Program-made: the position numbers and the translations under genes
DNA from: an uncultured Gammaproteobacteria bacterium
GTDB lineage: Bacteria > Patescibacteriota > Patescibacteriia > UBA9934
NCBI GenBank assembly: GCA_964344415.1
Contig: CAYFMS010000002.1
Span: 192,593-256,592, forward strand
Reading direction: 5' to 3'
Length of the DNA stretch: 64,000 nt
The notes under the pieces: model-generated
Told to the model about the DNA's origin: nothing
Seen by the model: the letters and a program-made list of their open reading frames with translations, nothing else
The model's database searches: none
Part shown: positions 47,331 to 60,204 of the stretch, piece by piece
How the letters are laid out: every line of letters starts with the position of its first letter
Position numbering within the stretch: position 1 is the first letter of the stretch

Positions 47331-50321
47331 TTAAGCATCAACATCGAGCTCTAGGCCCGCGCTCGTCATTTTAAAACCTTTAATATTAACCTCTCCGGCA
47401 TGTACTTTTTTATGGCAAGCCTTGCATAAAGGTACAAGATTGTATTTATGATCCTTGTGAAAATGCTTAATATGACCATGCTCATTGGCATTTTTTTGGG
47501 GGGCAATATGATGGATATCCGATATTATTCCACTACAAAGGGTACAACTTGTGGCATACAAATCGCTATTATAGGTATTAATCTGCTTGTTCGTTAACAA
47601 TGTTAAATCATCTTCTTCTTGAGCAATTTGCTGACGGATTTTGGCAGCTAAAGCGAGGAATTTCTTGTCCATATGCAAAGATTCCGCAAACTCCAAACCA
47701 TAGACACTGCTACCACTCCCGGCTTGTAATGTACGATCAAAAATCAATTTATCCGCTTGTTCATCGTAATGCACATGTAAATGCACACTCACCACTTGAG
47801 GTAGAGATTTCAACAGATCAATGTTATGCAGTTGATGTAGATGGGTGGTAAACATGAACAAAGATCCGATTTCCGAAAGACGCTGTATTGTCGCGGTTAC
47901 AATAGCTAGAGCGGATAGTGTTTCTGTACCTCGACTGATTTCATCACCTAATATGAGACTTTGAGCCGTTGATCGATTAAAAATATTCTTCATTTCCATC
48001 ATTTCCACCGCAAAAGAAGATAGTCCTTTTTCAAAGTTATCCCTTGCAATAATGCGAGTGAAGATTTCGTGGAAAAGAGTGAATCTCATTTGTTTGGCTG
48101 GAACATAAAAACCGCTCTGAGCCAAAATGACACAAATACCCAAGCTTTTCATGAGCGAAGACTTACCGCTCGAGTTAATTCCATATAATAAAACTCCACG
48201 CGTATCTTCATCCGTCATCTGCGCCATGGTGCAAGAAGCAATTGACGCTTCCTGCAATGACTTGTCGCCCATCACTACGTCATTTGGAACATAAATCCCA
48301 TTTTCTTCACGAGCTTCCACCAGTGGATGTCTAACCTCTAATAATTCTAAATACGACGTTTGCTCATGGCTCGTAATTATTTGCGGGCGAACTAAATTAT
48401 GCAGCAAAGAAGATTTGATATTCGAAAGGGCTACATCAATCTTTCCAATCGTCGTGATGAGCGTATTCATCAACTCAGAATATTGTGTATCGAGTCGCTC
48501 TAATTCAGTATGGAAAAAATTACGGACTAATGCAGAGATCTTTTTATTCAAGAGCGTAATTTGTTCAGAAATATCACCAATAATTTTTGCTGTGATTTTA
48601 ACATTGCCCGTTTGAATCTTTACCGTGAAATCGTTCAGTGCATACACCGTGCCATCAATCGAAACAAAGCTATCAGATAACATTTGTTCAATTAAAAAGT
48701 ACCTGCTTTTTGTGATTGAAATATGATGTCCTTCCTTTTCAAGATGCTTAATCACGACATAATCTCGTTCAGGTTTGCCGGTTTGTTGTTCAATCAAGTG
48801 GACAAATTCAGTCCTAATTGTTTCCAATTTCTCCTGAAGTTCATTCTTTTGCTTGATAAGACTATCGATCTCAGCATTAAATCCAGCTTGAAAAAAACTT
48901 TGACTAATTTCACCTTGTGAGTACTTGCTGGTTTCATCCAAATTGAAAATTGCTTCCAAATCAAGAATAGCTTTTTCGAGTAGTGGCTGCTGCTCGACAA
49001 GTTCCGGTAGAATCGACGAACCGTCAATACTGGCCAAATGCATTAAGATGCTTTTACTCGCAATCAAAGAATCATAGAGAAAATTGATTTCAAAAGGATG
49101 CAGGCGACCAAGCTGAATACGACGTTTTAAGCGATCAATATCATAAATATGTTTCAGTTCCGCATCGATTTCTGCATAGATAAAAATTAGCGCATCGGAA
49201 AGATCATAACGAGCTTCAAGCTCCGTTTGGTCAATGATTGGATTCATGAGCCGTTCCCTGAATAGGCGGCGACCAAGGCTGGTACGAGTATTATCGAAAA
49301 AACTTAATACGGTCTGTTCATTTGGGTTAGATGAAATAATATTGAGTTGCTCGAGTGGATTATTGCCCAAATATAGGAAGTTTTTGTCATTAATATGCTG
49401 TGGTTCGATAATATTTTTTACCACTTCCCTGTCATGCTCAATAATAAATTCAAGCAAAATTGCCAAAGCTTCCGCTGCCAAAGGTTTTTTCTCTAGGTTT
49501 AAATACTCAATCGACGACAAAAACGATTTAATTTCATAGCAATGTTTAAATAATTCATTCTGATAGCTAATAGATAAACGTTTATTGTCAGTATGAACAT
49601 TCAGACTCTCCGATAGCTCCAGATATTGCTGAACAGTTTCTGGAACAAGATCCTTACCTCCACATGTTAGGAGAACTTCATTTGGTTCATGTGATTTAAG
49701 TAAAGAAAAAAGCTGGTCTAATGCATACGTGGAGTCCTCCTGAGTGCTGTGGATTTCAAAAACTGAAGTTCTACCAGTGGTAACGTCAATTGCTGCATAG
49801 CCAACCGAGTAATTGTCCTTATGCTTCTCAACAATTAAAGAAGTGGTGAAATTGTCATCATTATTGAGAGTATATTCAAAGTTAACACCGGGAGATAAAA
49901 TATTGTCCAAGTAACGTGTTACATTTGGTGGTGCGCCTTTTTGCTTGATAATGACAATCGTGTATTTATTTTCGCGAATCAGTTTTTGAACATAGCGATC
50001 GAATGTGGCCGTAGGAAAACCAGCCATAAGTGGATTTTTGACATTGTTTTCCTGAATGTTTTTATTCTTTCGCGTTAATTGAATATTCAAAATTTCAGCA
50101 ATTTCTTTTGGTTTACCAATTTGCTTCGTCGCATTATCAACTCCGTAAATTTCAAAAAATGACCCGATTTCCATCAGCACAACTGTGTCAGTTCCATACT
50201 TTGCTTCGAACAGCTCTTGTAGCTGTAAATAGATGGCAATCAACGATTGATTCGTGTCATCGAGTAACTCCTGAACACGTGCTTGCATACCCATAATGCT
50301 CTGCATTTTATCAGCTCTCAC
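47331..50321 (-). CDS. MutS-family protein with C-terminal HNH endonuclease domain (MutS7-like architecture)
   Basis: N-terminal mismatch-binding-like domain I (VVLMEIGSFFEIYGVDNA). MutS ATPase domain V (LLYGINSSGKSSLMKSLG...ILGDEISRGTETLSALAI...FTTHLHQL). C-terminal HNH with CTLCSG...HHIAP...HG...N...LCKACHKKVH. 996 aa. Confidence 0.8.
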   Translation of the reverse strand: MRADKMQSIMGMQARVQELLDDTNQSLIAIYLQLQELFEAKYGTDTVVLMEIGSFFEIYGVDNATKQIGKPKEIAEILNIQLTRKNKNIQENNVKNPLMAGFPTATFDRYVQKLIRENKYTIVIIKQKGAPPNVTRYLDNILSPGVNFEYTLNNDDNFTTSLIVEKHKDNYSVGYAAIDVTTGRTSVFEIHSTQEDSTYALDQLFSLLKSHEPNEVLLTCGGKDLVPETVQQYLELSESLNVHTDNKRLSISYQNELFKHCYEIKSFLSSIEYLNLEKKPLAAEALAILLEFIIEHDREVVKNIIEPQHINDKNFLYLGNNPLEQLNIISSNPNEQTVLSFFDNTRTSLGRRLFRERLMNPIIDQTELEARYDLSDALIFIYAEIDAELKHIYDIDRLKRRIQLGRLHPFEINFLYDSLIASKSILMHLASIDGSSILPELVEQQPLLEKAILDLEAIFNLDETSKYSQGEISQSFFQAGFNAEIDSLIKQKNELQEKLETIRTEFVHLIEQQTGKPERDYVVIKHLEKEGHHISITKSRYFLIEQMLSDSFVSIDGTVYALNDFTVKIQTGNVKITAKIIGDISEQITLLNKKISALVRNFFHTELERLDTQYSELMNTLITTIGKIDVALSNIKSSLLHNLVRPQIITSHEQTSYLELLEVRHPLVEAREENGIYVPNDVVMGDKSLQEASIASCTMAQMTDEDTRGVLLYGINSSGKSSLMKSLGICVILAQSGFYVPAKQMRFTLFHEIFTRIIARDNFEKGLSSFAVEMMEMKNIFNRSTAQSLILGDEISRGTETLSALAIVTATIQRLSEIGSLFMFTTHLHQLHNIDLLKSLPQVVSVHLHVHYDEQADKLIFDRTLQAGSGSSVYGLEFAESLHMDKKFLALAAKIRQQIAQEEDDLTLLTNKQINTYNSDLYATSCTLCSGIISDIHHIAPQKNANEHGHIKHFHKDHKYNLVPLCKACHKKVHAGEVNIKGFKMTSAGLELDVDA

Positions 50322-50376
50322 AATAAAATCTAGTAAATAGTAAACATAAAAACCAACCTTACGGTTGATTCTTTGC

Positions 50377-50542
50377 TGGCTCTGGGGGTGATATATAGCC
50401 TCGCTCTATACAAACCTTCGGTTTGACCGCTCGGCAGGATCCCACCCCAGCATCTGTTCCATGAATACCTAGAACATCTGCACAGCCTGACGGCTGTTAA
50501 GCCAAAAGAAAACAACCCTGACGGGTTGCATTCTTTTGGCTC
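50377..50542. repeat. 166-bp direct repeat DR1; begins with a 14-nt copy (tggctctgggggtg) of the tRNA-Asn 3' terminus
   Basis: 3 mismatches in 166 bp versus 56100-56265. Internally it holds a nested hairpin gccaaaagaa...(aaccc tgac gggtt)...ttcttttggc. Confidence 0.85.
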
Positions 50543-50590
50543 CCCGTGTTACATGATTACCGAACTGGTGGATGTGTATCAGATGGTGCA
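50522..50590. repeat. Degenerate tRNA-3'-half-like remnant R1 (ttggctccc...gattaccgaactggtgg)
   Basis: About 70% similar to 52212-52280. It resembles the tRNA-Asn acceptor/T-loop segment (tggctc...ggattcgaaccc) on the same strand. Confidence 0.4.
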
Positions 50591-50880
50591 AAAAAGTATG
50601 AACCGGATTAATGGTTGATCTTTTGTGTCGAATGTAAGCGTGTAAATGATGTCAGAACATTTAAGAACTATAGGGGGTGACCCCCATCCCATGGCCTGGA
50701 TATAACTTATTGTTACGCTCACCGGTTAAAATACAACAATCAACAACCTGAACCCGCTGTTATTTGCGATAGGTCAGGCAAATTATAGTGATCCTTTTTA
50801 TTCTGTATATATTAAAAACCTCCGTAGCTCAGTTGGAGCAATGGAGGTTACGACCCTGTCGTCGGCAGGATCAGATGAGT

Positions 50881-52071
50881 TTACGCAGATTTGCGCCTAC
50901 GGGCATCGAAAATGGCGTCGATCACCGCATCTGTCTTTGGACGGCGGTGTGAGTAAATCTCGTCAGCCATCTCTGGGACCTTGTTTGCTAGGCGCTGAAG
51001 ATCGTCTTCTTTCAAAGTGAAACGTTCGATCAGGCACCGAACAGCTTCTTCCATTCGGACCTGTGTGCGTATGCATAGCCACAGGGCGCGTTCGCTTGCG
51101 ATGTTCAGATCTATGAGACTTGCTGCTTGTTTACGGTATTCAAGACTGCGTCCAAAGTCGAGAATTTCAGCAAGACAATCCGGATCCGTGCAGTTACGCC
51201 GAAGCAACTCTTCGCTAGCAATGTCGCTAAATCCGCTTAACACGGTAGTAGACAAGACCACGTCACTTGGATCAAGAGAGAGAAAGGTCTGCCACAGCAT
51301 TTCATCGAGCTCTCGTACTTTACGAAACCACTTTGCAAAAACGACAGGGTCATCGCAACCGTTGAAGAGCTTCTGTTTGGCGTCTTCACGGAGCTCTTCG
51401 CTCATATTACCGATCCAAAGAAGTTGATCTTCGCTGAAGTTGTGGTCACGCAGAAACCGACGCGCTCGATCCAGTAGCTCCGGAACCCTTGCGATATCCT
51501 TTAGCTCGTACATCCCGATCCCCCTGACTTCTAGTATCTGCCAGGCCTGTTCCCTGAATTCTGGACAGTGTATCGCCACACGAGTCAGGTGCGTGAGGTC
51601 TACTACATCAAGCTTGAGCTGTTTCCATGCACGTCCACGCAGGTCTGTAAAATGTCTCATGATCTGCGTGACTGCCCAGTTACAGCGAAGTCGACGCGGA
51701 TCGGCCCTGCCGAGCAACCAATTCGTGAAACGTTCCCACAACGTAAGCTCGAGATCCTCGAGGTAGTCGAGAACCGCTTCGGCAATGGATCGCGTGCTCG
51801 GCAGATCGTTGTCAATGGAAATCGCTAGATCGGTGCCGTTCATATCCGCCGCCATCAGTTGCGCCGCGTGTTGACGGAACAGCGAGCATCCTCGCACCAC
51901 ATCTCTCAGCGTATGACAGTTGATACCTTGAATCAAGGTTAATCGCCAGGCTTCCCGACAAATGTGTTCAGGAACATCGTCCCGAACGAAGTAGCTGTAG
52001 TGCCAGTTCTTGGCTCCAGGTTCGCTGTTGAGTAGCGCAGTCCAGAGTTCCTCTGCTGTTTGTTCGTCCAT
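50881..52071 (-). CDS. Hypothetical protein (396 aa), all-alpha, Trp/Leu/Arg-rich; compositionally foreign (GC-rich) gene
   Basis: The ORF is visibly much GC-richer than its flanks (which resemble the rest of the window), and several spurious antisense ORFs co-occur in it. No recognisable catalytic motifs. Confidence 0.5.
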   Translation of the reverse strand: MDEQTAEELWTALLNSEPGAKNWHYSYFVRDDVPEHICREAWRLTLIQGINCHTLRDVVRGCSLFRQHAAQLMAADMNGTDLAISIDNDLPSTRSIAEAVLDYLEDLELTLWERFTNWLLGRADPRRLRCNWAVTQIMRHFTDLRGRAWKQLKLDVVDLTHLTRVAIHCPEFREQAWQILEVRGIGMYELKDIARVPELLDRARRFLRDHNFSEDQLLWIGNMSEELREDAKQKLFNGCDDPVVFAKWFRKVRELDEMLWQTFLSLDPSDVVLSTTVLSGFSDIASEELLRRNCTDPDCLAEILDFGRSLEYRKQAASLIDLNIASERALWLCIRTQVRMEEAVRCLIERFTLKEDDLQRLANKVPEMADEIYSHRRPKTDAVIDAIFDARRRKSA

Positions 52072-52211
52072 TCGGCCTCCAAAAGAGCATTGTAAAATTT
52101 TTAATTCGTGTGAGTATTTTGAACGCTCAACGAATAAATTATAGCAAGAATATACTTATGTCAATAAAAGGTCAGGCTTAGCACAGCCAAATAAAAATCC
52201 TCCGCACAAGA

Positions 52212-52280
52212 CGGTGAATTTTTATTGGCTCCCAACATTACGTGTTTACCGAACTGGTGAGTATCTACCAAGCGGTGAAG
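52212..52280. repeat. Degenerate tRNA-3'-half-like remnant R2
   Basis: ttggctcccaacattacgtgtttaccgaactggtgagtat, similar to R1; same orientation. Confidence 0.4.
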
Positions 52281-52314
52281 TTGAGCATGCCACGCATTCA
52301 AAGCTGTATGTTCG

Positions 52315-52965
52315 CTATTTCGCAATAAGATGTTTATCAAACCCTTGATCAACAAGATGCTGGTAGGCCTCTAATACGTTGTCTGGTATTTCTTGCGAGA
52401 TCTGGAACCCCTTATCAGGGTATTCGATGATTCTTTGAAGATCGCCAACCATAATGTTTACAAAAGCATCTGTATCAATCGATCCATCATCATAGTCTTC
52501 AAAGTTCAGCTCTGGAGATGCAAGAATCAATTCTTTCTCAGGCCAATGCACTTTTCCAGTTGCATACGCACGGCGCTCCATATACGGCTTCGTGACAATA
52601 ATCGCACTTGAAAATTCGATGCCTTTTTCTGTGAGCAGCTCACCACTCAGTTTGAAGTTGTCGCCAGTATTTCGCGCTTCTTTCTCAAGAATGATGCTGT
52701 CATCCGGAACTCCCGCCTTTATCATCACATCAGCAAACTCTTCCGCCTCAGTTCGTTTCCATCCAGTATCAAGTAGGTCGCCAATGTGAGCCATGCCACC
52801 AGAAACGACTACTATGGGTGCTAAACCTTTTTTGAACAAATCAGCAGCATACTCTGCTACACGGATATCGTGACTACCTAAAACAAGGATAATGTCAGCC
52901 TTCTCAAGCAACTGATTGAGTTGATGATATTTGTAGAGCAATTTCGCGCTTTCCGCTATATCCAT
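52315..52965 (-). CDS. DUF218/YdcF-family protein
   Basis: ADIILVLGSHDIRVAEYAADLFKKGLAPIVVVSGG is the canonical DUF218 core. 216 aa; last gene of a 5-gene minus-strand operon. Confidence 0.65.
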   Translation of the reverse strand: MDIAESAKLLYKYHQLNQLLEKADIILVLGSHDIRVAEYAADLFKKGLAPIVVVSGGMAHIGDLLDTGWKRTEAEEFADVMIKAGVPDDSIILEKEARNTGDNFKLSGELLTEKGIEFSSAIIVTKPYMERRAYATGKVHWPEKELILASPELNFEDYDDGSIDTDAFVNIMVGDLQRIIEYPDKGFQISQEIPDNVLEAYQHLVDQGFDKHLIAK

Positions 52966-52966
52966 A

Positions 52967-53320
52967 CTAGAAATCTTCTTTGAAGTCTGCTTGAATCGAG
53001 AGTTCCTCTCCCTTTTTTATATCTCTCAAAGCAACATCAGCATCTAGCTCGTAGTCCACGTATACATTCGGGTCTTCGTATCGATTTACGTGTCGTTCTG
53101 GGTCTGGGTAGTAATAAATGATTCCATATCTTTTGTGTGTAAAGTGTTTCTCAGACGCAGGAAGATTCTTGAACTCTTCTTCCGTGAGAGTCTTCAAATT
53201 GTACTGAATCACCACTTCACCCTTCTTGAAATCTCGAAACGCAAATACACCAAGCCCATCATTGAATTGACCAATGCCAGACTCCCTAATTTCAACATCT
53301 CCGAAAATTTGTTTATTCAT
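52967..53320 (-). CDS. SET-domain protein (small bacterial SET, putative lysine methyltransferase)
   Basis: GLGVFAFRDFKKGEVV (SET-N), HVNRYEDPNV (NHSCxPN-like) and EELSIQADFKE (post-SET-like ELTFDY). The start is set at internal MNKQIFGD, which avoids overlap with the upstream gene. Confidence 0.55.
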   Translation of the reverse strand: MNKQIFGDVEIRESGIGQFNDGLGVFAFRDFKKGEVVIQYNLKTLTEEEFKNLPASEKHFTHKRYGIIYYYPDPERHVNRYEDPNVYVDYELDADVALRDIKKGEELSIQADFKEDF

Positions 53321-53336
53321 AGTACTGGTTAGTATA

Positions 53337-54287
53337 TCAACTACTTGAGAGAGAAAAATCCTTGTACATAAGGTCACATAAACAATCATGAAGCCTATTC
53401 ATATTCTCAACATCCTCTCTGGTGAATGTATGGTTAGGAGAAAGTGATGCACCGTGAACAAGGCCCTTGTTATTTCTTAGATGATTCCATGCATGTACAT
53501 GGCTTAAATAATATCCAAATCCTTTTCCAAGACTCTTTAAAAACTCCTGCACCCTATCCTTTGTTACACCTTTGTTATTTATATTTCCGGGCGTCAACTT
53601 TCTTTTTAAAGCTTTTTTCTGTGAGTCAGACAAACCCAACTCCTCAATCTGTAAGACCGTATTTTCTATAATGCTATTCAACTTACTCCAATTAGCACTT
53701 TCTTTTCTTTTATCGACAATGGAGGTTTTTACACTTTCTGTTTTAGATAAATGCTCTATTAGAGCATACTCACTCATAAATCTAACATCAGCAATTGCAA
53801 GGGTATTGATTTGAAGCATTGGGAGTAGCATTTTTCTAAAAAAATGACTCTCTTTTAGTCGGGCTAGTCCGTGCTCAATGGTCGCTACAGGATGAGCGAA
53901 TAGATGTTTTCTATTTCTATTGATTTGACAACCTCCTCCTAGGTTGAAATTTTTTGGAATAGCAGAGAATGGAAAATCATTGTTATGAAATAAAATGGTC
54001 ACATTATCAGCCAGTAAATATGATAGTACGAGTGAGATTCTCCATAGTAAATCCTTATCTTCATCCTCTAATGTTACAGTCAGAACTAATGTGTTGTACC
54101 GAACAAGCTGCAGCTCAAGCTCTCCCTTAAAGATATTAAAGGTGAACTGCGTTCCGGTGTTAAGCACTTCTTTCTGCTTGCTTGGAATACTACCTAACTC
54201 ATATTTCATTTTCAGCAACTTACCAGTCTCCTCAAGATAAATCTGTCGCTCTCTGTGTAGATTGAACAAGTTGCGCACCTCGGGCAT
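53337..54287 (-). CDS. Hypothetical protein (316 aa) with C-terminal Rx6H (HEPN-like) motif; candidate Abi/HEPN-type protein
   Basis: C-terminal SHVHAWNHLRNNKGLVHGASL contains R-x6-H, as in HEPN nuclease motifs. No other family recognised. Third gene of the operon. Confidence 0.35.
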   Translation of the reverse strand: MPEVRNLFNLHRERQIYLEETGKLLKMKYELGSIPSKQKEVLNTGTQFTFNIFKGELELQLVRYNTLVLTVTLEDEDKDLLWRISLVLSYLLADNVTILFHNNDFPFSAIPKNFNLGGGCQINRNRKHLFAHPVATIEHGLARLKESHFFRKMLLPMLQINTLAIADVRFMSEYALIEHLSKTESVKTSIVDKRKESANWSKLNSIIENTVLQIEELGLSDSQKKALKRKLTPGNINNKGVTKDRVQEFLKSLGKGFGYYLSHVHAWNHLRNNKGLVHGASLSPNHTFTREDVENMNRLHDCLCDLMYKDFSLSSS

Positions 54288-54302
54288 ACAAGTTTACAAG
54301 CA

Positions 54303-55196
54303 CTATACTGCTTGATGGTTTGATGAATACTTATCTGTCAGCAAAGTAACAGCACCTTCATTGAAGAAGAAATACAAGTTTCCGTTTGAACGTGTAGAGA
54401 ATACCTTTCCGAGGTACTCCTGTTTATTATCAATCGTGTTGTAGCGTAAACCTCCGGCGTATGAAGAATATTGAGAAGCAATATCCGTACCCTGTTTCTC
54501 TGATTCTGATGCTTTTGACAGCACAATAGCACCAACCTCTCCCGTTAAATCAAAAAGAGATTTAGGAAATCCAGATTTATGGCCGTGATGAGGTGCCACC
54601 AGAATGTCTAAGCCATTTTTCATTGTTCTAATAAAATCCTTGTCATTGGCTGCAAGCCAGTCCCATCCAGCCTGCTCAAGGTCACCACCAAATAGAATAC
54701 GAACGTTTCCATACCTCACGTACCTCAAGATGCTAGAGTTATTTTTCTGTTTATCATTGAGCTCCGAATTGCTCTTAACCTGATGCATTGGGATGAGGAA
54801 GACTCTGTTTTCGTGAAATCCCCAGCCGTCGAACTTAATTGAGGCACCTCGATATCGTAAATCGATATGGTTTTTATATTCGTCATGAATATTTTCACCA
54901 ACATCAAATGATTCATGTCGTCTACGGTGAACGAGGTAAGGCGACAATTTTTCAGAAACCTTTTTCGCATTCTTTACATGGTCATCATCTGGATGGGTAA
55001 CGTGCAGTAGCGTTAGGTCGTACCCATTATAACTTTTCATTTTCAAAAAACTGTCCTTCAAGTGAAGCACTCGGTCTACGGGGCAATCCTTTTCCGCGTT
55101 ACTTCCACAATCAATCATCATGCTATATCCGTTTGGACAAACACATAGATTGCATGCAGCGTTATTTACATCAAAGACAACTAATTTTGCACTCAT
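54303..55196 (-). CDS. Standalone ComEC/Rec2-type metallo-beta-lactamase-fold nuclease domain protein
   Basis: Matches the ComEC C-terminal domain pattern: VFDVNNAACNLCV...MMIDCGS, LLHVTHPDDDHV (HxDxDH), ILFGGDLE and ILVAPHHGHKSG (PHHGS motif). The start is set at internal MSAKL, which gives an ATGA overlap with the upstream membrane-protein gene. Confidence 0.7.
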   Translation of the reverse strand: MSAKLVVFDVNNAACNLCVCPNGYSMMIDCGSNAEKDCPVDRVLHLKDSFLKMKSYNGYDLTLLHVTHPDDDHVKNAKKVSEKLSPYLVHRRRHESFDVGENIHDEYKNHIDLRYRGASIKFDGWGFHENRVFLIPMHQVKSNSELNDKQKNNSSILRYVRYGNVRILFGGDLEQAGWDWLAANDKDFIRTMKNGLDILVAPHHGHKSGFPKSLFDLTGEVGAIVLSKASESEKQGTDIASQYSSYAGGLRYNTIDNKQEYLGKVFSTRSNGNLYFFFNEGAVTLLTDKYSSNHQAV

Positions 55197-55858
55197 ATCT
55201 TTCTCTTTAAATTCAACTGAATAATTTTGTGTACCAATCCTCTTGCAACTCCACGGGCTCTCCAGAGAAAAATTAGTGCTATAGCGAAAGCAATGACGCT
55301 TAGTTCTCGATAATCCTGAGTAAATAAAAGCAAGCCAACAAGCAAGAAGACGAGGAAGATTACGCGACAAAAAAGATACGAAGCGTTCGACTGAACTATT
55401 TCTGAAGTGCTGGAAACCTTGCTATATAGCCTCCAAAATATGCTCTGTGACAAATCGTCAGCCTGCTTTGTATCATCGCCCTTAAAGATGAGAGGAATAT
55501 CTGAATACTCTCGGTCAATCAAAGCTCTTTCGTTTGTATTAAGGTCAAGCAACTTCAACAACTCTTCACGTTTGTAATCACTCTTGAGTACAGGGTTCTG
55601 CTTATATAAAAAGACCTTGGAAGGCCTTCTCATGCGAAAGAAAATATCAACAAAAAATTCAAGGGAGTGGGCAAGTGTTTGTAAAACTTCGCCGGCAATA
55701 AAAGCGGCACAAAAGAATAGGAAAGTATAAAGAAAGTCTAAGTCCTGATTAAAGTACACGGAAAACGTTTCGCTATATAGTGCCAGTGCCACTCCTAGCA
55801 GGAGACCGCCCGGCATAACTCTAATCATTAAGTCTTCAAAACTGAATTTGTCCAACAT
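55193..55858 (-). CDS. Hypothetical membrane protein (221 aa, 2+2 TM), first gene of the island operon
   Basis: Hydrophobic helices at both ends with a charged central region; its stop overlaps the MBL-gene start (ATGA). Confidence 0.4.
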   Translation of the reverse strand: MLDKFSFEDLMIRVMPGGLLLGVALALYSETFSVYFNQDLDFLYTFLFFCAAFIAGEVLQTLAHSLEFFVDIFFRMRRPSKVFLYKQNPVLKSDYKREELLKLLDLNTNERALIDREYSDIPLIFKGDDTKQADDLSQSIFWRLYSKVSSTSEIVQSNASYLFCRVIFLVFLLVGLLLFTQDYRELSVIAFAIALIFLWRARGVARGLVHKIIQLNLKRKI

Positions 55859-55924
55859 ATTTAATCTAATTTTGGTAATACTGCTTGTACGACTCCTTGA
55901 ATGCTATTAAAGGGGTCAGGTCTC

Positions 55925-55950
55925 ACGTCGTTCGTGAACGACGTGAGGTC
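55925..55950. other. Perfect 12-bp-stem hairpin (ctcacgtcgttc gtga acgacgtgag) upstream of the island operon
   Basis: Inverted repeat seen directly in sequence. It sits in the operon's 5' flank, so it is more likely an operator or structured leader than a terminator. Confidence 0.4.
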
Positions 55951-56099
55951 GTTTATTGTCGCTTTTTTTGTAAAATAAAGTCATGGCACGACCTCCTAGA
56001 ATAGAATATAACGGAGCTCTCTATCATGCAATGTCGCGTGGACTGTCCTACCTCCTTCAAAGTAAAATAAAAACAATCCCTGATGGGATTATTTTTATT

Positions 56100-56265
56100 T
56101 GGCTCTGGGGGTGATATATAGCCTCGCTCTATACAAACCTTTGGTTTGACCGCTCGGCAGGATCCCACCCCAGCATCTGTTCCATAAATACCCAGAACAT
56201 CTGCACAGCCTGACGGCTGTTAAGCCAAAAGAAAACAACCCTGACGGGTTGCATTCTTTTGGCTC
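56100..56265. repeat. 166-bp direct repeat DR2, immediately abutting (6-nt overlap) the tRNA-Asn 3' end
   Basis: Near-identical to DR1. The layout is ...tggctctgggggtg-DR body-ttttggctc | tgggggtgggattcgaaccc (tRNA). Confidence 0.85.
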
Positions 56266-56616
56266 TGGGGGTGGGATTCGAACCCACGACCAATTGGTTA
56301 CACGTAATCCTATAGTTTCCTATAAGCATGGACTATATCATCATCCTTCTCAATGAGTGAGGATGCGAGGCGCTTCGAGTCTTGCGACCCTACTCCATAA
56401 AGGATAGTCTCTGAACCGGCCTTCGCCAAGGCTTCGTCCGACAGGTCTTCCTGCTCGGTCCTTGATGAAGGATTGGCTGCTGATTGCCATATTCTTTCGA
56501 ATGAAGGTTTCCAGCAATTCACCTCGTTTTCATTCCACTGTTTCCAGTGGAAGCTGCGTTAGGCGCTCGATTGAGCTGTGCCACAGCCAACTGCTCTGCC
56601 ACTGAGCTACCCCAGA
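56260..56616 (-). tRNA. tRNA-Asn(GUU) interrupted by a group I intron in the anticodon loop (exons 56584-56616 and 56260-56300)
   Basis: 5' exon TCTGGGGTAGCTCAGTGGCAGAGCAGTTGGCTGT. 3' exon TAACCAATTGGTCGTGGGTTCGAATCCCACCCCCAGAGCCA. The spliced product has a canonical cloverleaf with anticodon loop CUGUUAA and a T-arm GTGGG-TTCGAAT-CCCAC, with CCA encoded. It is close to bacterial tRNA-Asn sequences. Confidence 0.8.
56301..56582 (-). ncRNA. Group I self-splicing intron (282 nt) inserted between anticodon positions 35 and 36 of tRNA-Asn
   Basis: Conserved group I core elements are present. P-like GAAUUGCUGGAAA, Q-like AAUCAGCAGCC, R GUUCAGAGACUA, S AUAUAGUCC. A P2 hairpin has a GAAA tetraloop (CCACUG-GAAA-CAGUGG). 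A P9 hairpin has a GAAA tetraloop (CUUAUAG-GAAA-CUAUAGG). The intron ends in a G (omegaG). The 5' exon ends in U with a candidate IGS GCAGCU. Confidence 0.75.
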
Positions 56617-56858
56617 TTATTATCTCGTATTCGTTTTAGAAACTCTTTTCCGTAGCCCGATTTTAGGTATCTTTCCCTTGCTCGCGCCGAGGGTCTATCA
56701 GTTACCTGTTCGGTGTACAGCAGAGTCCATGGTCGGTAGGCTTTCGTAGAAGAAACCCTACCAGCGTTGTGCTCCGATATTCTACGTTCGATATTTCCTG
56801 AAAAGCCCACATAAATTCTACCATCATGTTGACTTGCAATTGCGTAAACGTGATACAT
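56607..56858 (-). CDS. GIY-YIG nuclease-domain protein (UPF0213/YhbQ-like, 83 aa)
   Basis: YHVYAIASQHDGRIYVGFSGNIERRISEHNAG...KAYRPWTLLYTEQ...ARARERYLKS matches the GIY-YIG (GIY...YVG...R...H...E) YhbQ-type pattern. Its last 10 nt overlap the 5' end of tRNA-Asn. Confidence 0.7.
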   Translation of the reverse strand: MYHVYAIASQHDGRIYVGFSGNIERRISEHNAGRVSSTKAYRPWTLLYTEQVTDRPSARARERYLKSGYGKEFLKRIRDNNLG

Positions 56859-56873
56859 ATTTTGTTAACTGCT

Positions 56874-56894
56874 CCCTGCCTGCCGGCAGGCAGG
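56874..56894. repeat. Perfect GC-rich palindrome ccctgcctgccggcaggcagg(g), copy 1
   Basis: Inverted repeat seen directly in sequence. A second, complete copy lies at 60183-60204. Confidence 0.7.
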
Positions 56895-56914
56895 TGCCAC
56901 TGAGCTACCCCAGA
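56895..56914 (-). repeat. Duplicated 20-nt fragment of the tRNA-Asn 5' end (tgccactgagctaccccaga)
   Basis: Identical to 56597-56616 (tRNA positions 1-20). It lies 280 bp upstream of the real tRNA start, on the far side of the GIY-YIG ORF. Confidence 0.7.
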
Positions 56915-56994
56915 ATTTCAAATTGTGAACATTTTTCAAAAGAACGGTGACGAAATGGTATCATGCATTTTAGTAATCGTCAATAATTTATTCT

Positions 56995-57195
56995 ATGAAA
57001 AAGAAAAAAGCTTTTCTTCAATTGGCGGGTTCCATATTCGCCACTGTTGCCCTGCTCCATGCACTCCGCGTAGGCATGGAATGGGACGTTATTCTTGATT
57101 CTTATGAATTGCCTCCCGCGCTGAGTTTGTTAACAGCAGGTGTGGCAGGGACACTTGCTTATGCATTGTTTTACTATTCAAATCATAAAAAATAA
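56995..57195 (+). CDS. Small membrane protein (66 aa)
   Basis: Two hydrophobic helices; first gene of a plus-strand cluster. Confidence 0.3.
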   Translation: MKKKKAFLQLAGSIFATVALLHALRVGMEWDVILDSYELPPALSLLTAGVAGTLAYALFYYSNHKK

Positions 57196-60182: not shown

Positions 60183-60204
60183 CCTGCCTGCCGGCAGGCA
60201 GGGA
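60183..60204. repeat. Perfect 22-bp palindrome ccctgcctgccggcaggcaggg, copy 2
   Basis: Identical to the copy next to the tRNA-Asn 5' fragment. It is followed by a member of the cccgccttcgctc/gagctacg repeat module (RC orientation) at 60210-60250. Confidence 0.7.

Follow-up and report, generated by a model that had tools for sequence, protein, structure and literature searches.

How does a 5.9-kb segment come to lie between two near-identical 166-nt direct repeats beside a tRNA gene without a recombinase of its own? This is the question raised by positions 50377-56265 of the 64-kb stretch of Patescibacteria DNA analysed here (the window), which is part of a 768-kb metagenome contig assembled from short reads with MEGAHIT (ERZ930061). 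The segment follows the 3' end of a tRNA-Asn(GUU) gene, and all descriptions below are given on the tRNA (minus) strand. We conclude that it probably consists of two recombinase-less cassettes that were accreted in tandem at a hotspot, the tRNA-Asn 3' end of these Patescibacteria (candidate phyla radiation, CPR). A first-pass annotation, made from the sequence, had proposed repeated integration of recombinase-less cargo at the tRNA 3' end and had read the 166-nt repeats as the resulting attachment-site (att) duplications. The first proposal is well supported by comparison with related loci, but the second is not: relatives without the island have the body of the repeat once, and the 166-nt repeat is therefore not a de novo att duplication.

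The array between tRNA-Asn and MutS

On the tRNA strand the order is tRNA-Asn, a trailer module (B), cassette gamma, cassette beta, a second copy of the trailer (B'), a terminator and a gene for a MutS-family protein. B is the repeat DR2 (56100-56265) and B' the repeat DR1 (50377-50542). By BLASTN and global alignment the two are identical at 163 of 166 nt, with mismatches at repeat offsets of about 73, 80 and 123, and a repeat search of the window extended the match to 180 nt at 95% identity. Both terminate in the final 14 nt of the adjoining tRNA-Asn(GUU); B' does so at 50390-50377. This 14-mer (TGGCTCTGGGGGTG, which reads CACCCCCAGAGCCA on the tRNA strand) occurs exactly three times in the 64 kb, at 50377, 56100 and 56260, that is, at 50390-50377, 56113-56100 and 56273-56260 on the tRNA strand. 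The copy at 56260 is the genuine tRNA 3' end, and DR2 overlaps the tRNA by the six nucleotides GAGCCA. The two repeat regions are 98% identical from GAGCCA through the 14-mer and about 40% identical just upstream, where the tRNA in one copy is aligned with a site that we term ψ1 in the other; the drop falls exactly at GAGCCA. A direct repeat of the tRNA 3' segment is thus present at the distal boundary, and the near-identical repeats, their three differences and their connection to the 14-nt tRNA end, as first described, were borne out by the alignments and the 14-mer counts.

The distal limit of the variable region is a conserved boundary formed by a terminator, termA (50348-50373), and the MutS leader, homologues of which precede MutS in the related loci L006, L010, L011, L012, L020 and L021. 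MutS itself (47331-50321, minus strand; Pfam MutS I, II, III and V) is the first conserved gene past the array, and homologues of 78-89% identity are found in about 14 relatives; they place the organism of the window among Patescibacteria (Uhrbacteria/Magasanikbacteria-like). Eight related MutS loci were fetched, and most loci were obtained with MutS as bait. The distance from tRNA-Asn to the MutS gene downstream of it is 5.4 kb in L006, 1.45 kb in L010 and 3.3 kb in L020. The cargo of the tRNA-to-MutS interval is unrelated among these three loci and the window. No DNA or protein similarity was detected between the window cargo and the intervals of L006, L010, L012, L020 and L021, and the only interval content shared between relatives is the ends of L006 and L020. 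The interval is hypervariable in all four loci that keep tRNA-Asn near MutS, and it is from this variability only that we infer mobility of the cassettes. The empty-site comparison that had been suggested at the outset showed the site of the relatives to be differently filled, but a truly empty site was not found.

The interval of L006 carries a candidate enzyme. An open reading frame (ORF) on the reverse strand (L006 4499-6061) encodes a 520-aa large serine recombinase (Resolvase, Recombinase and Zn_ribbon_recom domains); it adjoins the tRNA, and its last 14 codons run into the tRNA 3' half. In L020 the left-end DNA is 92% identical to that of L006 and retains about 133 C-terminal recombinase codons, followed by different cargo and the same right-end ψ near MutS. 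Together, the L006 element and the L020 remnant show how recombinase-less islands arise at this site.

Both cassettes of the window, like those of the related loci, close with ψ and a terminator hairpin. Gamma (52226-56099, 3.87 kb) ends in ψ2 (GTTCGGTAAACACGTAATGTTGGGAGCCA, 52226-52254) and beta (50537-52225, 1.69 kb) in ψ1 (GTTCGGTAATCATGTAACACGGGGAGCCA, 50537-50565), whose GAGCCA forms the first 6 nt of DR1. These sites had been noticed as two degenerate fragments resembling tRNA 3' halves. Both fragments were confirmed, and they are related (27/34 nt identical; local score 38 against a shuffle maximum of 25), but they are not degenerate, since the same conserved 29-nt site closes cassettes in related loci. 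ψ1 and ψ2 are 76% identical, and the 29-nt consensus, GTTCK-N16-SGGAGCCA, has two matches in the window compared with none in 100 window shuffles. ψ resembles the part of tRNA-Asn from the T-loop to the CCA yet is 5 nt longer, and is therefore a site under conservation, not a tRNA piece in decay. Folding of ψ gave no conserved structure, and attC-type cores (RYYYAAC ... GTTRRRY) are lacking in its consensus.

A pattern search combined with an nhmmer profile identified 11 more ψ sites (one each in L006, L020, L010 and L016, five in L012 and two in L021), giving 13 sites at seven independent loci, every one in the orientation of tRNA and MutS. Identical 29-mers recur in different genomes between unrelated flanks (L010 and L012c; L012b and L021a). 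ψ sits 0-60 nt past a gene end (316 nt in the case of ψ1) and is followed by an A-tract, a hairpin and a T-tract that together resemble an intrinsic terminator. ψ-bounded units range from 0.7 to 1.9 kb in L012 and L021, where a Gp49/HTH pair and a peptidase are among their contents; they measure 1.69 and 3.87 kb in the window, 3.2 kb in L020 and 5.4 kb in L006. Beyond MutS, no ψ was found in any locus examined. Repeats of the type 'GGAGCCA + hairpin' flank cassettes elsewhere (L012d/e, 41/51; L021a/b, 33/41; and L010, where tRNA followed by hairpin hp1 is matched by ψ followed by hp1'). These repeats are a shorter form of the B/B' topology.

Another junction motif, ACCYAAGTGGGACTTCAGAAC, follows the post-ψ terminator after a few nucleotides at L010 8702-8725, at L012 77, 822, 1514, 2258 and 3490, and at L016 1140-1118. 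It resembles an inverted ψ or tRNA end and turns the L010, L012 and L016 junctions into long imperfect palindromes. The window has no such motif, and it was dropped as a part of the model.

The trailer module and the origin of its duplication

B consists of the GAGCCA shared with the tRNA, a 146-nt body and the 14-nt copy of the tRNA end (56113-56100). It folds into four hairpins (hp1, 56265-56222; hp2, 56220-56205; hp3, 56204-56173; hp4, 56171-56108) with a fold z of -5.7. The first of these, made of an A-tract, a stem and a T-tract, pairs with the tRNA GCCA. The 5' strand of hp4 is formed by arm 2 (CTGGGGTGGGATCC, 56159-56172, minus strand), in which the tRNA 3' end can be read in inverted form, as the complement of GAATCCCACCCCCAG. 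A single B-like unit is found right after an intron-less tRNA-Asn in L010, L013/14 and L016. Independent folding of the B sequences of L010, L013, L016 and the window gave minimum free energy structures with all four hairpins in common (z = -5.4 to -8.2); the stem sequences of hp2, hp3 and the hairpin inside hp4 vary from one to another, with pairing maintained. A MAFFT/RNAalifold treatment of the four sequences recovered hp1 well and counted two compensatory pairs, but it misaligned hp2-hp4; we therefore relied on the independent folds in place of a covariance model. The suggestion that the repeat body is structured and possibly a non-coding RNA thus stands as far as the nested hairpins are concerned, but no Rfam family was matched: searches of Rfam 15 gave no hit at the gathering threshold; relaxing it to E ≤ 10 yielded nothing better than chance over 55900-57000, and the stretch with B' and the ψ sites, 50300-52400, had no hit at E ≤ 1. 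In metagenomes, a pattern taken from hp1 found nothing, and the tRNA end followed by AAAGAA found four JGI loci.

The sequence of B follows that of the tRNA in its own genome. Its end copies the host genome's tRNA end (CACCCCCAGAGCCA in the window, CACCCCCGGAGCCA in L013, CTCCCCCGAGCCA in L010; truncated in L016); acceptor pair 3-70 and one T-stem pair vary among these tRNAs, and B varies accordingly. The equivalents of arm 2 also match their own tRNA, reading GGGG(G)TGGGAT in L013 and L016 and GGGGAG in L010. That the arms of B track the tRNA represents an unexplained but testable concerted evolution of a tRNA gene and its flanking DNA. We conclude that B is a resident, selected and structured trailer of tRNA-Asn and not a product of this insertion.

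In the L013/L014 lineage, B and a terminator are directly followed by a gene for an IS200/IS605-type TnpA (L014 2943-3398, minus strand; Y1_Tnp, E = 5.5e-32), itself preceded by a CCCCAGC-ATA-GCTGGGG hairpin. L014 is the sole place with TnpA downstream of B. Unlike a palindrome element derived from IS200/IS605, B has direct-repeat flanks, and the window holds no TnpA.

We propose that cassettes would enter as circles by site-specific recombination at or beside '...GAGCCA', for which a recombinase like the serine enzyme of L006 would act in trans, and that the newest cassette would be the one closest to the tRNA. Beta and gamma would then be decayed or non-autonomous elements, and because ψ1 and ψ2 are 76% identical they may be members of one family. 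Integration of beta at the tRNA|B junction would give rise to ψ1|B', and the next integration, that of gamma, to ψ2|beta. The presence of B between the tRNA and gamma requires one additional event. The simplest would be recombination of a B-gamma-beta circle (site ψ1|B) with the resident tRNA|B junction; such a circle could arise, for example, when the tRNA end recombined with the identical 14-mer that ends B. B would have been duplicated because the incoming DNA (gamma and beta) carried, or recombined within, a near-identical trailer. The crossover might have occurred in GAGCCA, in the 14-nt mimic of the tRNA end or, by homologous recombination, within the 160-nt B homology; all three routes yield the observed order, with ψ1 directly against B', and are indistinguishable here. 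The 14-mer ending B is probably a second attB-like half-site, which would explain both the capture of B and its tracking of the tRNA sequence.

Several observations weigh against accretion by this mechanism. Neither the ORFs of the segment (Pfam), in agreement with the reported lack of integrase, excisionase and transposase, nor 30 large ORFs of the window contain a recombinase or transposase. Pairwise scores of ψ1 and ψ2 against the ψ of the L006 recombinase element do not exceed those of shuffles, and what would link them to that element is a likeness in pattern, spacing, position and orientation alone. In L011, L012 and L021/22 tRNA-Asn is not within reach of MutS, and no cassette recurred in a second context apart from the ends common to L006 and L020. 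Crossover by a large serine recombinase does not need long flanking identity, and repeats of 40-166 nt are not predicted by that enzyme class alone; several variants of the route to B duplication fit equally. The use of MutS as bait biases the impression that arrays end at MutS. Finally, as this is a metagenome assembly, part of the population may hold a circular form or an empty site.

Tentatively, the data can be taken further, to an integron-like capture of genes in the CPR. Recombinase-less cassettes of 0.7-4 kb, each closed by ψ and its hairpin, would be stacked at the tRNA-Asn 3' end by a large serine recombinase acting in trans. B, assembled from one direct, one inverted and a further direct copy of the tRNA 3' end, all co-varying with the tRNA, would serve the platform as a module for attachment and regulation and would not be a scar. 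We consider this possible, but clearly less secure than the tandem accretion itself.

It is unlikely that B (the 146-nt body with its 14-mer) is a mini mobile element, similar to a cis-mobilizable element (CIME) or a miniature inverted-repeat transposable element (MITE), that uses the tRNA 14-mer as its core and inserted twice, as B' before and as B after beta and gamma. Such an element would account for the same tRNA-end sequence on both sides of B, for its non-coding and strongly structured body, and for the 98% identity of B and B' despite two insertions between them. In three lineages, moreover, the B end agrees with the tRNA end of its genome, which recurrent strand exchange at the 14-mer would produce. 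However, only two copies were seen in the 64 kb, both within the array, with the 14-mer or GAGCCA as flanks and no terminal inverted repeats. The B bodies diverge like other intergenic DNA at a constant position, pointing to vertical descent; two exact B-derived patterns found no match in viral contigs, and a double-stranded circle of 160 bp would be a poor recombination substrate.

Two further explanations seem improbable to us, and to a similar degree. The first, which is the simplest reading of the first-pass annotation, is a single classical tyrosine-integrase island whose attL and attR share an unusually long identity of 166 bp, in which the integrase was lost later and the internal fragments are decayed older att sites. 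This is consistent with direct repeats that start with the tRNA 3' end and with a cargo that is foreign in composition and phyletic spread. It is difficult to reconcile with a repeat body already single-copy in relatives lacking the island, with the conservation of ψ and its identical 29-mers in different genomes, and with the serine type of the sole recombinase at this site in relatives. Furthermore, no Phage_integrase domain was detected in the segment ORFs or in 30 further window ORFs, and a full B and a third 14-mer lie between tRNA and cargo, unlike the usual junction. The second explanation regards B and ψ with its hairpin as RNA-level modules for processing, termination or stability that mimic tRNA 3' ends, and the duplication as an ordinary segmental one or as gene conversion. 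The preserved pairing of the hairpins despite sequence change, the intrinsic-terminator-like hairpin after every ψ and the three B/B' differences, which leave the structure intact, are in its favour, as is hp4, modelled as a minihelix-like stem with a free GCCA tail. It leaves unexplained why wholly different cargo lies beside 87-89% identical MutS genes and why a recombinase element is bounded by the tRNA end and ψ; moreover, ψ has no conserved fold, and no Rfam family was matched.

Least probable is an assembly artefact in which strain variants or a circular element were joined via the shared 166-nt repeat: a MEGAHIT metagenome contig, and short-read unitigs that break within the repeat, leave room for one, but the three copy-specific mismatches are reachable by k = 127 from either flank, so that 127-mers are able to phase each repeat copy to its own flanks; the ENA and NCBI copies record the same structure; an independent Logan contig (L005) corresponds to window 50513-56129, the whole cargo with 30 nt of B sequence at either end; and the same topology with shorter repeats is seen in the independent assemblies L010, L012 and L021.

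Cargo of the cassettes and the surrounding genes

The reported five-gene operon and foreign GC-rich ORF were both found. Gamma opens with an intrinsic-terminator-like hairpin behind the 14-mer that ends B (56064-56099), followed by five co-directional genes on the minus strand: a transmembrane (TM) protein of 221 aa (55858-55193), an MBL-fold protein (55196-54303; Pfam, PADLOC), a 316-aa protein (54287-53337), a SET-domain protein (53389-52967; Pfam) and a DUF218 protein (52965-52315; Pfam). In PADLOC the MBL protein matches the phage-defence candidate PDC-M48B (E = 3.9e-22); its matches to LmuA and 6A-MBL are weaker. Homologues of the MBL protein (≤60% identity) are scattered over Parcubacteria, Pacebacteria and Bacteroidales; the nearest are flanked by restriction-modification systems, and a protein of about 220 aa always precedes them, as in the window. 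The TM and MBL genes (54303-55858) form a conserved pair, which is also present in the defence islands of other CPR genomes. The TM protein has a weak Csx27-like match and the 316-aa protein a sub-threshold match to Abi_C (E = 0.012), beyond which PADLOC and NCBIfam gave nothing for the 316-aa, SET, DUF218 and ORFan proteins. On the plus strand at the edge of gamma, a strong 14-bp hairpin terminator (55919-55950) precedes the start of a short ORF (MARPPRIEYNGALYHAMSRG..., 55983-56060). The 26 aa resemble the start of a Y1/RAYT-type transposase but gave no Pfam hit even at E ≤ 10, and we do not count them as evidence; they may be what is left of a gene truncated there.

Beta comprises an A-tract/hairpin left end, a promoter, one gene and ψ1. 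The gene encodes an ORFan of 396 aa (52071-50881) with a GC content of 50-54%, compared with a background of about 0.40, and has its own near-consensus promoter (15-nt spacer) and ribosome-binding site. Only two full-length homologues (44% and 27% identity) were found among 1.84e9 representative proteins, and the nearer one (44%) resides in a genome of 55-58% GC. No Pfam, NCBIfam or PADLOC entry matched the protein. The left ends of beta and gamma have no significant similarity to one another or to B. Downstream of the ORFan, at about 50815-50860 on the plus strand, a tRNA 5'-half look-alike (CCTCCGTAGCTCAGTTGGAGCAATGGAGGTTACGACC; D-arm and TAC anticodon loop, tRNA-Val-like) was rejected, as neither ARAGORN nor Rfam called it.

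The adjacent tRNA-Asn that had been reported is real but split by an intron. Exon 1 (56583-56616, 34 nt) stops after anticodon position 35 and is collinear with the intron-less tRNA-Asn of L006 and L010; a 282-nt group I intron in the anticodon loop (56301-56582), between anticodon positions 35 and 36, is followed by exon 2 (56260-56300, 41 nt), which terminates in CACCCCCAGAGCCA and is supported by collinearity with the relatives and by the spliced call. The intron matches Rfam RF00028 at 56592-56309 (83.9 bits, E = 7e-20), and joining 56616-56583 to 56300-56260 gave a canonical 75-nt tRNA-Asn(GUU) by ARAGORN. On the unspliced DNA ARAGORN called no tRNA at this locus, which is explained by the minus-strand position of the gene and its interruption by the intron. 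A homologous intron is present in the tRNA-Asn of L020 (6420-6668, 81.7 bits) and missing from L006, L010, L013 and L016, which indicates gain or loss within the clade. Group I introns of bacterial tRNAs are known from tRNA-Leu, fMet, Arg and Ile. To our knowledge none has been described in a bacterial tRNA-Asn, and a full-text literature search found no case.

A further cassette adjoins the 5' side of the tRNA. A gene for a small GIY-YIG protein (56607-56858, 83 aa; Pfam GIY-YIG, E = 7.9e-17) overlaps the tRNA 5' end with its last codons, and L013/L014 have an equivalent arrangement. Beyond it lies a relic of tRNA positions 1-28 (56867-56914), split into 56914-56895 and 56874-56867 by a 20-nt palindrome, CCTGCCTGCCGGCAGGCAGG (56894-56875). 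In L013 the GIY-YIG cassette (L013 4391-4743) lies between direct repeats of tRNA positions 1-28 that match perfectly over all 28 nt. The unit may be a homing-type cassette that brings a replacement for the 5' part of the tRNA. Its repeats mirror those at the 3' side, and L016 seems to hold a diverged copy. CCTGCCTGCCGGCAGGCAGG, a GC-rich palindrome of 20-22 nt with the look of a repetitive extragenic palindromic element, occurs at two places, 56875-56894 and 60183-60204.

At the distal side, MutS (78-89%) is far better conserved across genomes than the genes next to it. The homologous block starts precisely at the GAGCCA junction and stops at the stop codon, and in L006 and L020 the gene has a GC content of 0.40-0.43 between flanks of 0.50-0.59; the MutS gene may itself be horizontally mobile. 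The recorded gene begins at an ATG later than a GTG start. Some homologues are annotated as HNH endonucleases; a C-terminal HNH was read by eye, and Pfam shows MutS domains only.

Comparison with known systems

By analogy, the closest precedent for the array is the ssrA islands of Dehalococcoides. These are tandem, with 20-bp repeats of the ssrA end and a 15-bp element-side motif, TTCAGRSMGMRKCCA; at attL, a reverse-strand gene encodes DsiB, a serine recombinase of about 540 aa, and 15 islands without the integration module were read as cis-mobilizable via accretion (McMurdie et al. 2011, PMC3146451). The locus described here likewise has tandem units behind one small-RNA gene, delimited by repeats of the 3' end of that gene; each of several units has a target-end repeat and a conserved element-side motif. 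As in the ssrA islands, a short motif that does not align with the target gene lies upstream of the repeat (TTCAGRSMGMRKCCA there, ψ here). A serine recombinase of about 520-540 aa on the reverse strand near attL is a further likeness, provided here by the L006 ORF and not by the window. The differences are that the target is tRNA-Asn and not transfer-messenger RNA, that the host belongs to the CPR and that the units are of 0.7-5.4 kb, often with one gene. Identity to the target is just GAGCCA (ψ) or 14 nt (B) compared with 20 bp, the six-gene integration module was not seen, and that account of the ssrA islands has nothing equivalent to the structured B or to a 166-nt repeat.

Accretion is also known from CIMEs and from integrative and conjugative (ICE) and integrative and mobilizable (IME) elements, where integrase-less remnants keep their att sites and newcomers join one of them, giving at least three direct att copies and composites that move together (Pavlovic 2004; Bellanger 2011; PMC5704250). 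The unit tRNA|B|14-mer is comparable to a minimal remnant, and B with gamma and beta to a composite. The known cases are from Firmicutes and depend on conjugation and on tyrosine (or DDE) integrases; no conjugation or mobilization genes were seen here, and conservation of B across lineages with its structure kept is unexpected for a dead remnant.

The cassettes share with integron arrays that they are small, mostly single-gene, co-directional and recombinase-less, end in a site by a hairpin, are collected on one platform and differ between strains in cargo that is unrelated. Integrons rely on the tyrosine recombinase IntI, attI and the promoter Pc, and their attC sites carry an R''/L''-L'/R' palindrome with a GTTRRRY core. 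In contrast, the window has no tyrosine recombinase, no attI was seen, the platform is a tRNA gene, and ψ has neither that palindrome nor that core. A terminator stands at each junction, which makes a common promoter unlikely.

Classical tRNA islands and prophages resemble the segment in their integration at a tRNA 3' end, the duplication of that end at the far boundary and the foreign cargo. They differ from it in that the segment has no integrase by the tRNA, three copies of the tRNA end and a repeat that continues for 152 nt beyond the tRNA-derived part. A sublocation scheme for integration into tRNA genes is reportedly due to Williams (2002, as cited in PMC3146451). In a full-text search we found no paper on tRNA-linked integrative elements with serine recombinases in Patescibacteria, and the mobile elements and routes of gene gain of these organisms are poorly known.

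Here, selfish or accessory DNA of four kinds has gathered at a single tRNA gene: a group I intron, a 5' GIY-YIG cassette, a structured trailer and a hypervariable cassette array with a defence-type gene pair. Should ψ cassettes be captured by a serine recombinase, organisms with tiny genomes would possess an acquisition platform that is integron-like but based on a different chemistry, and the ψ motif and the B architecture provide simple sequence handles for surveys. The known systems provide precedents for tandem site-specific accretion at a small-RNA gene, from which the present array differs in its tRNA target, its CPR host, its very small cassettes, its minimal identity to the target and the structured, tRNA-mimicking B.

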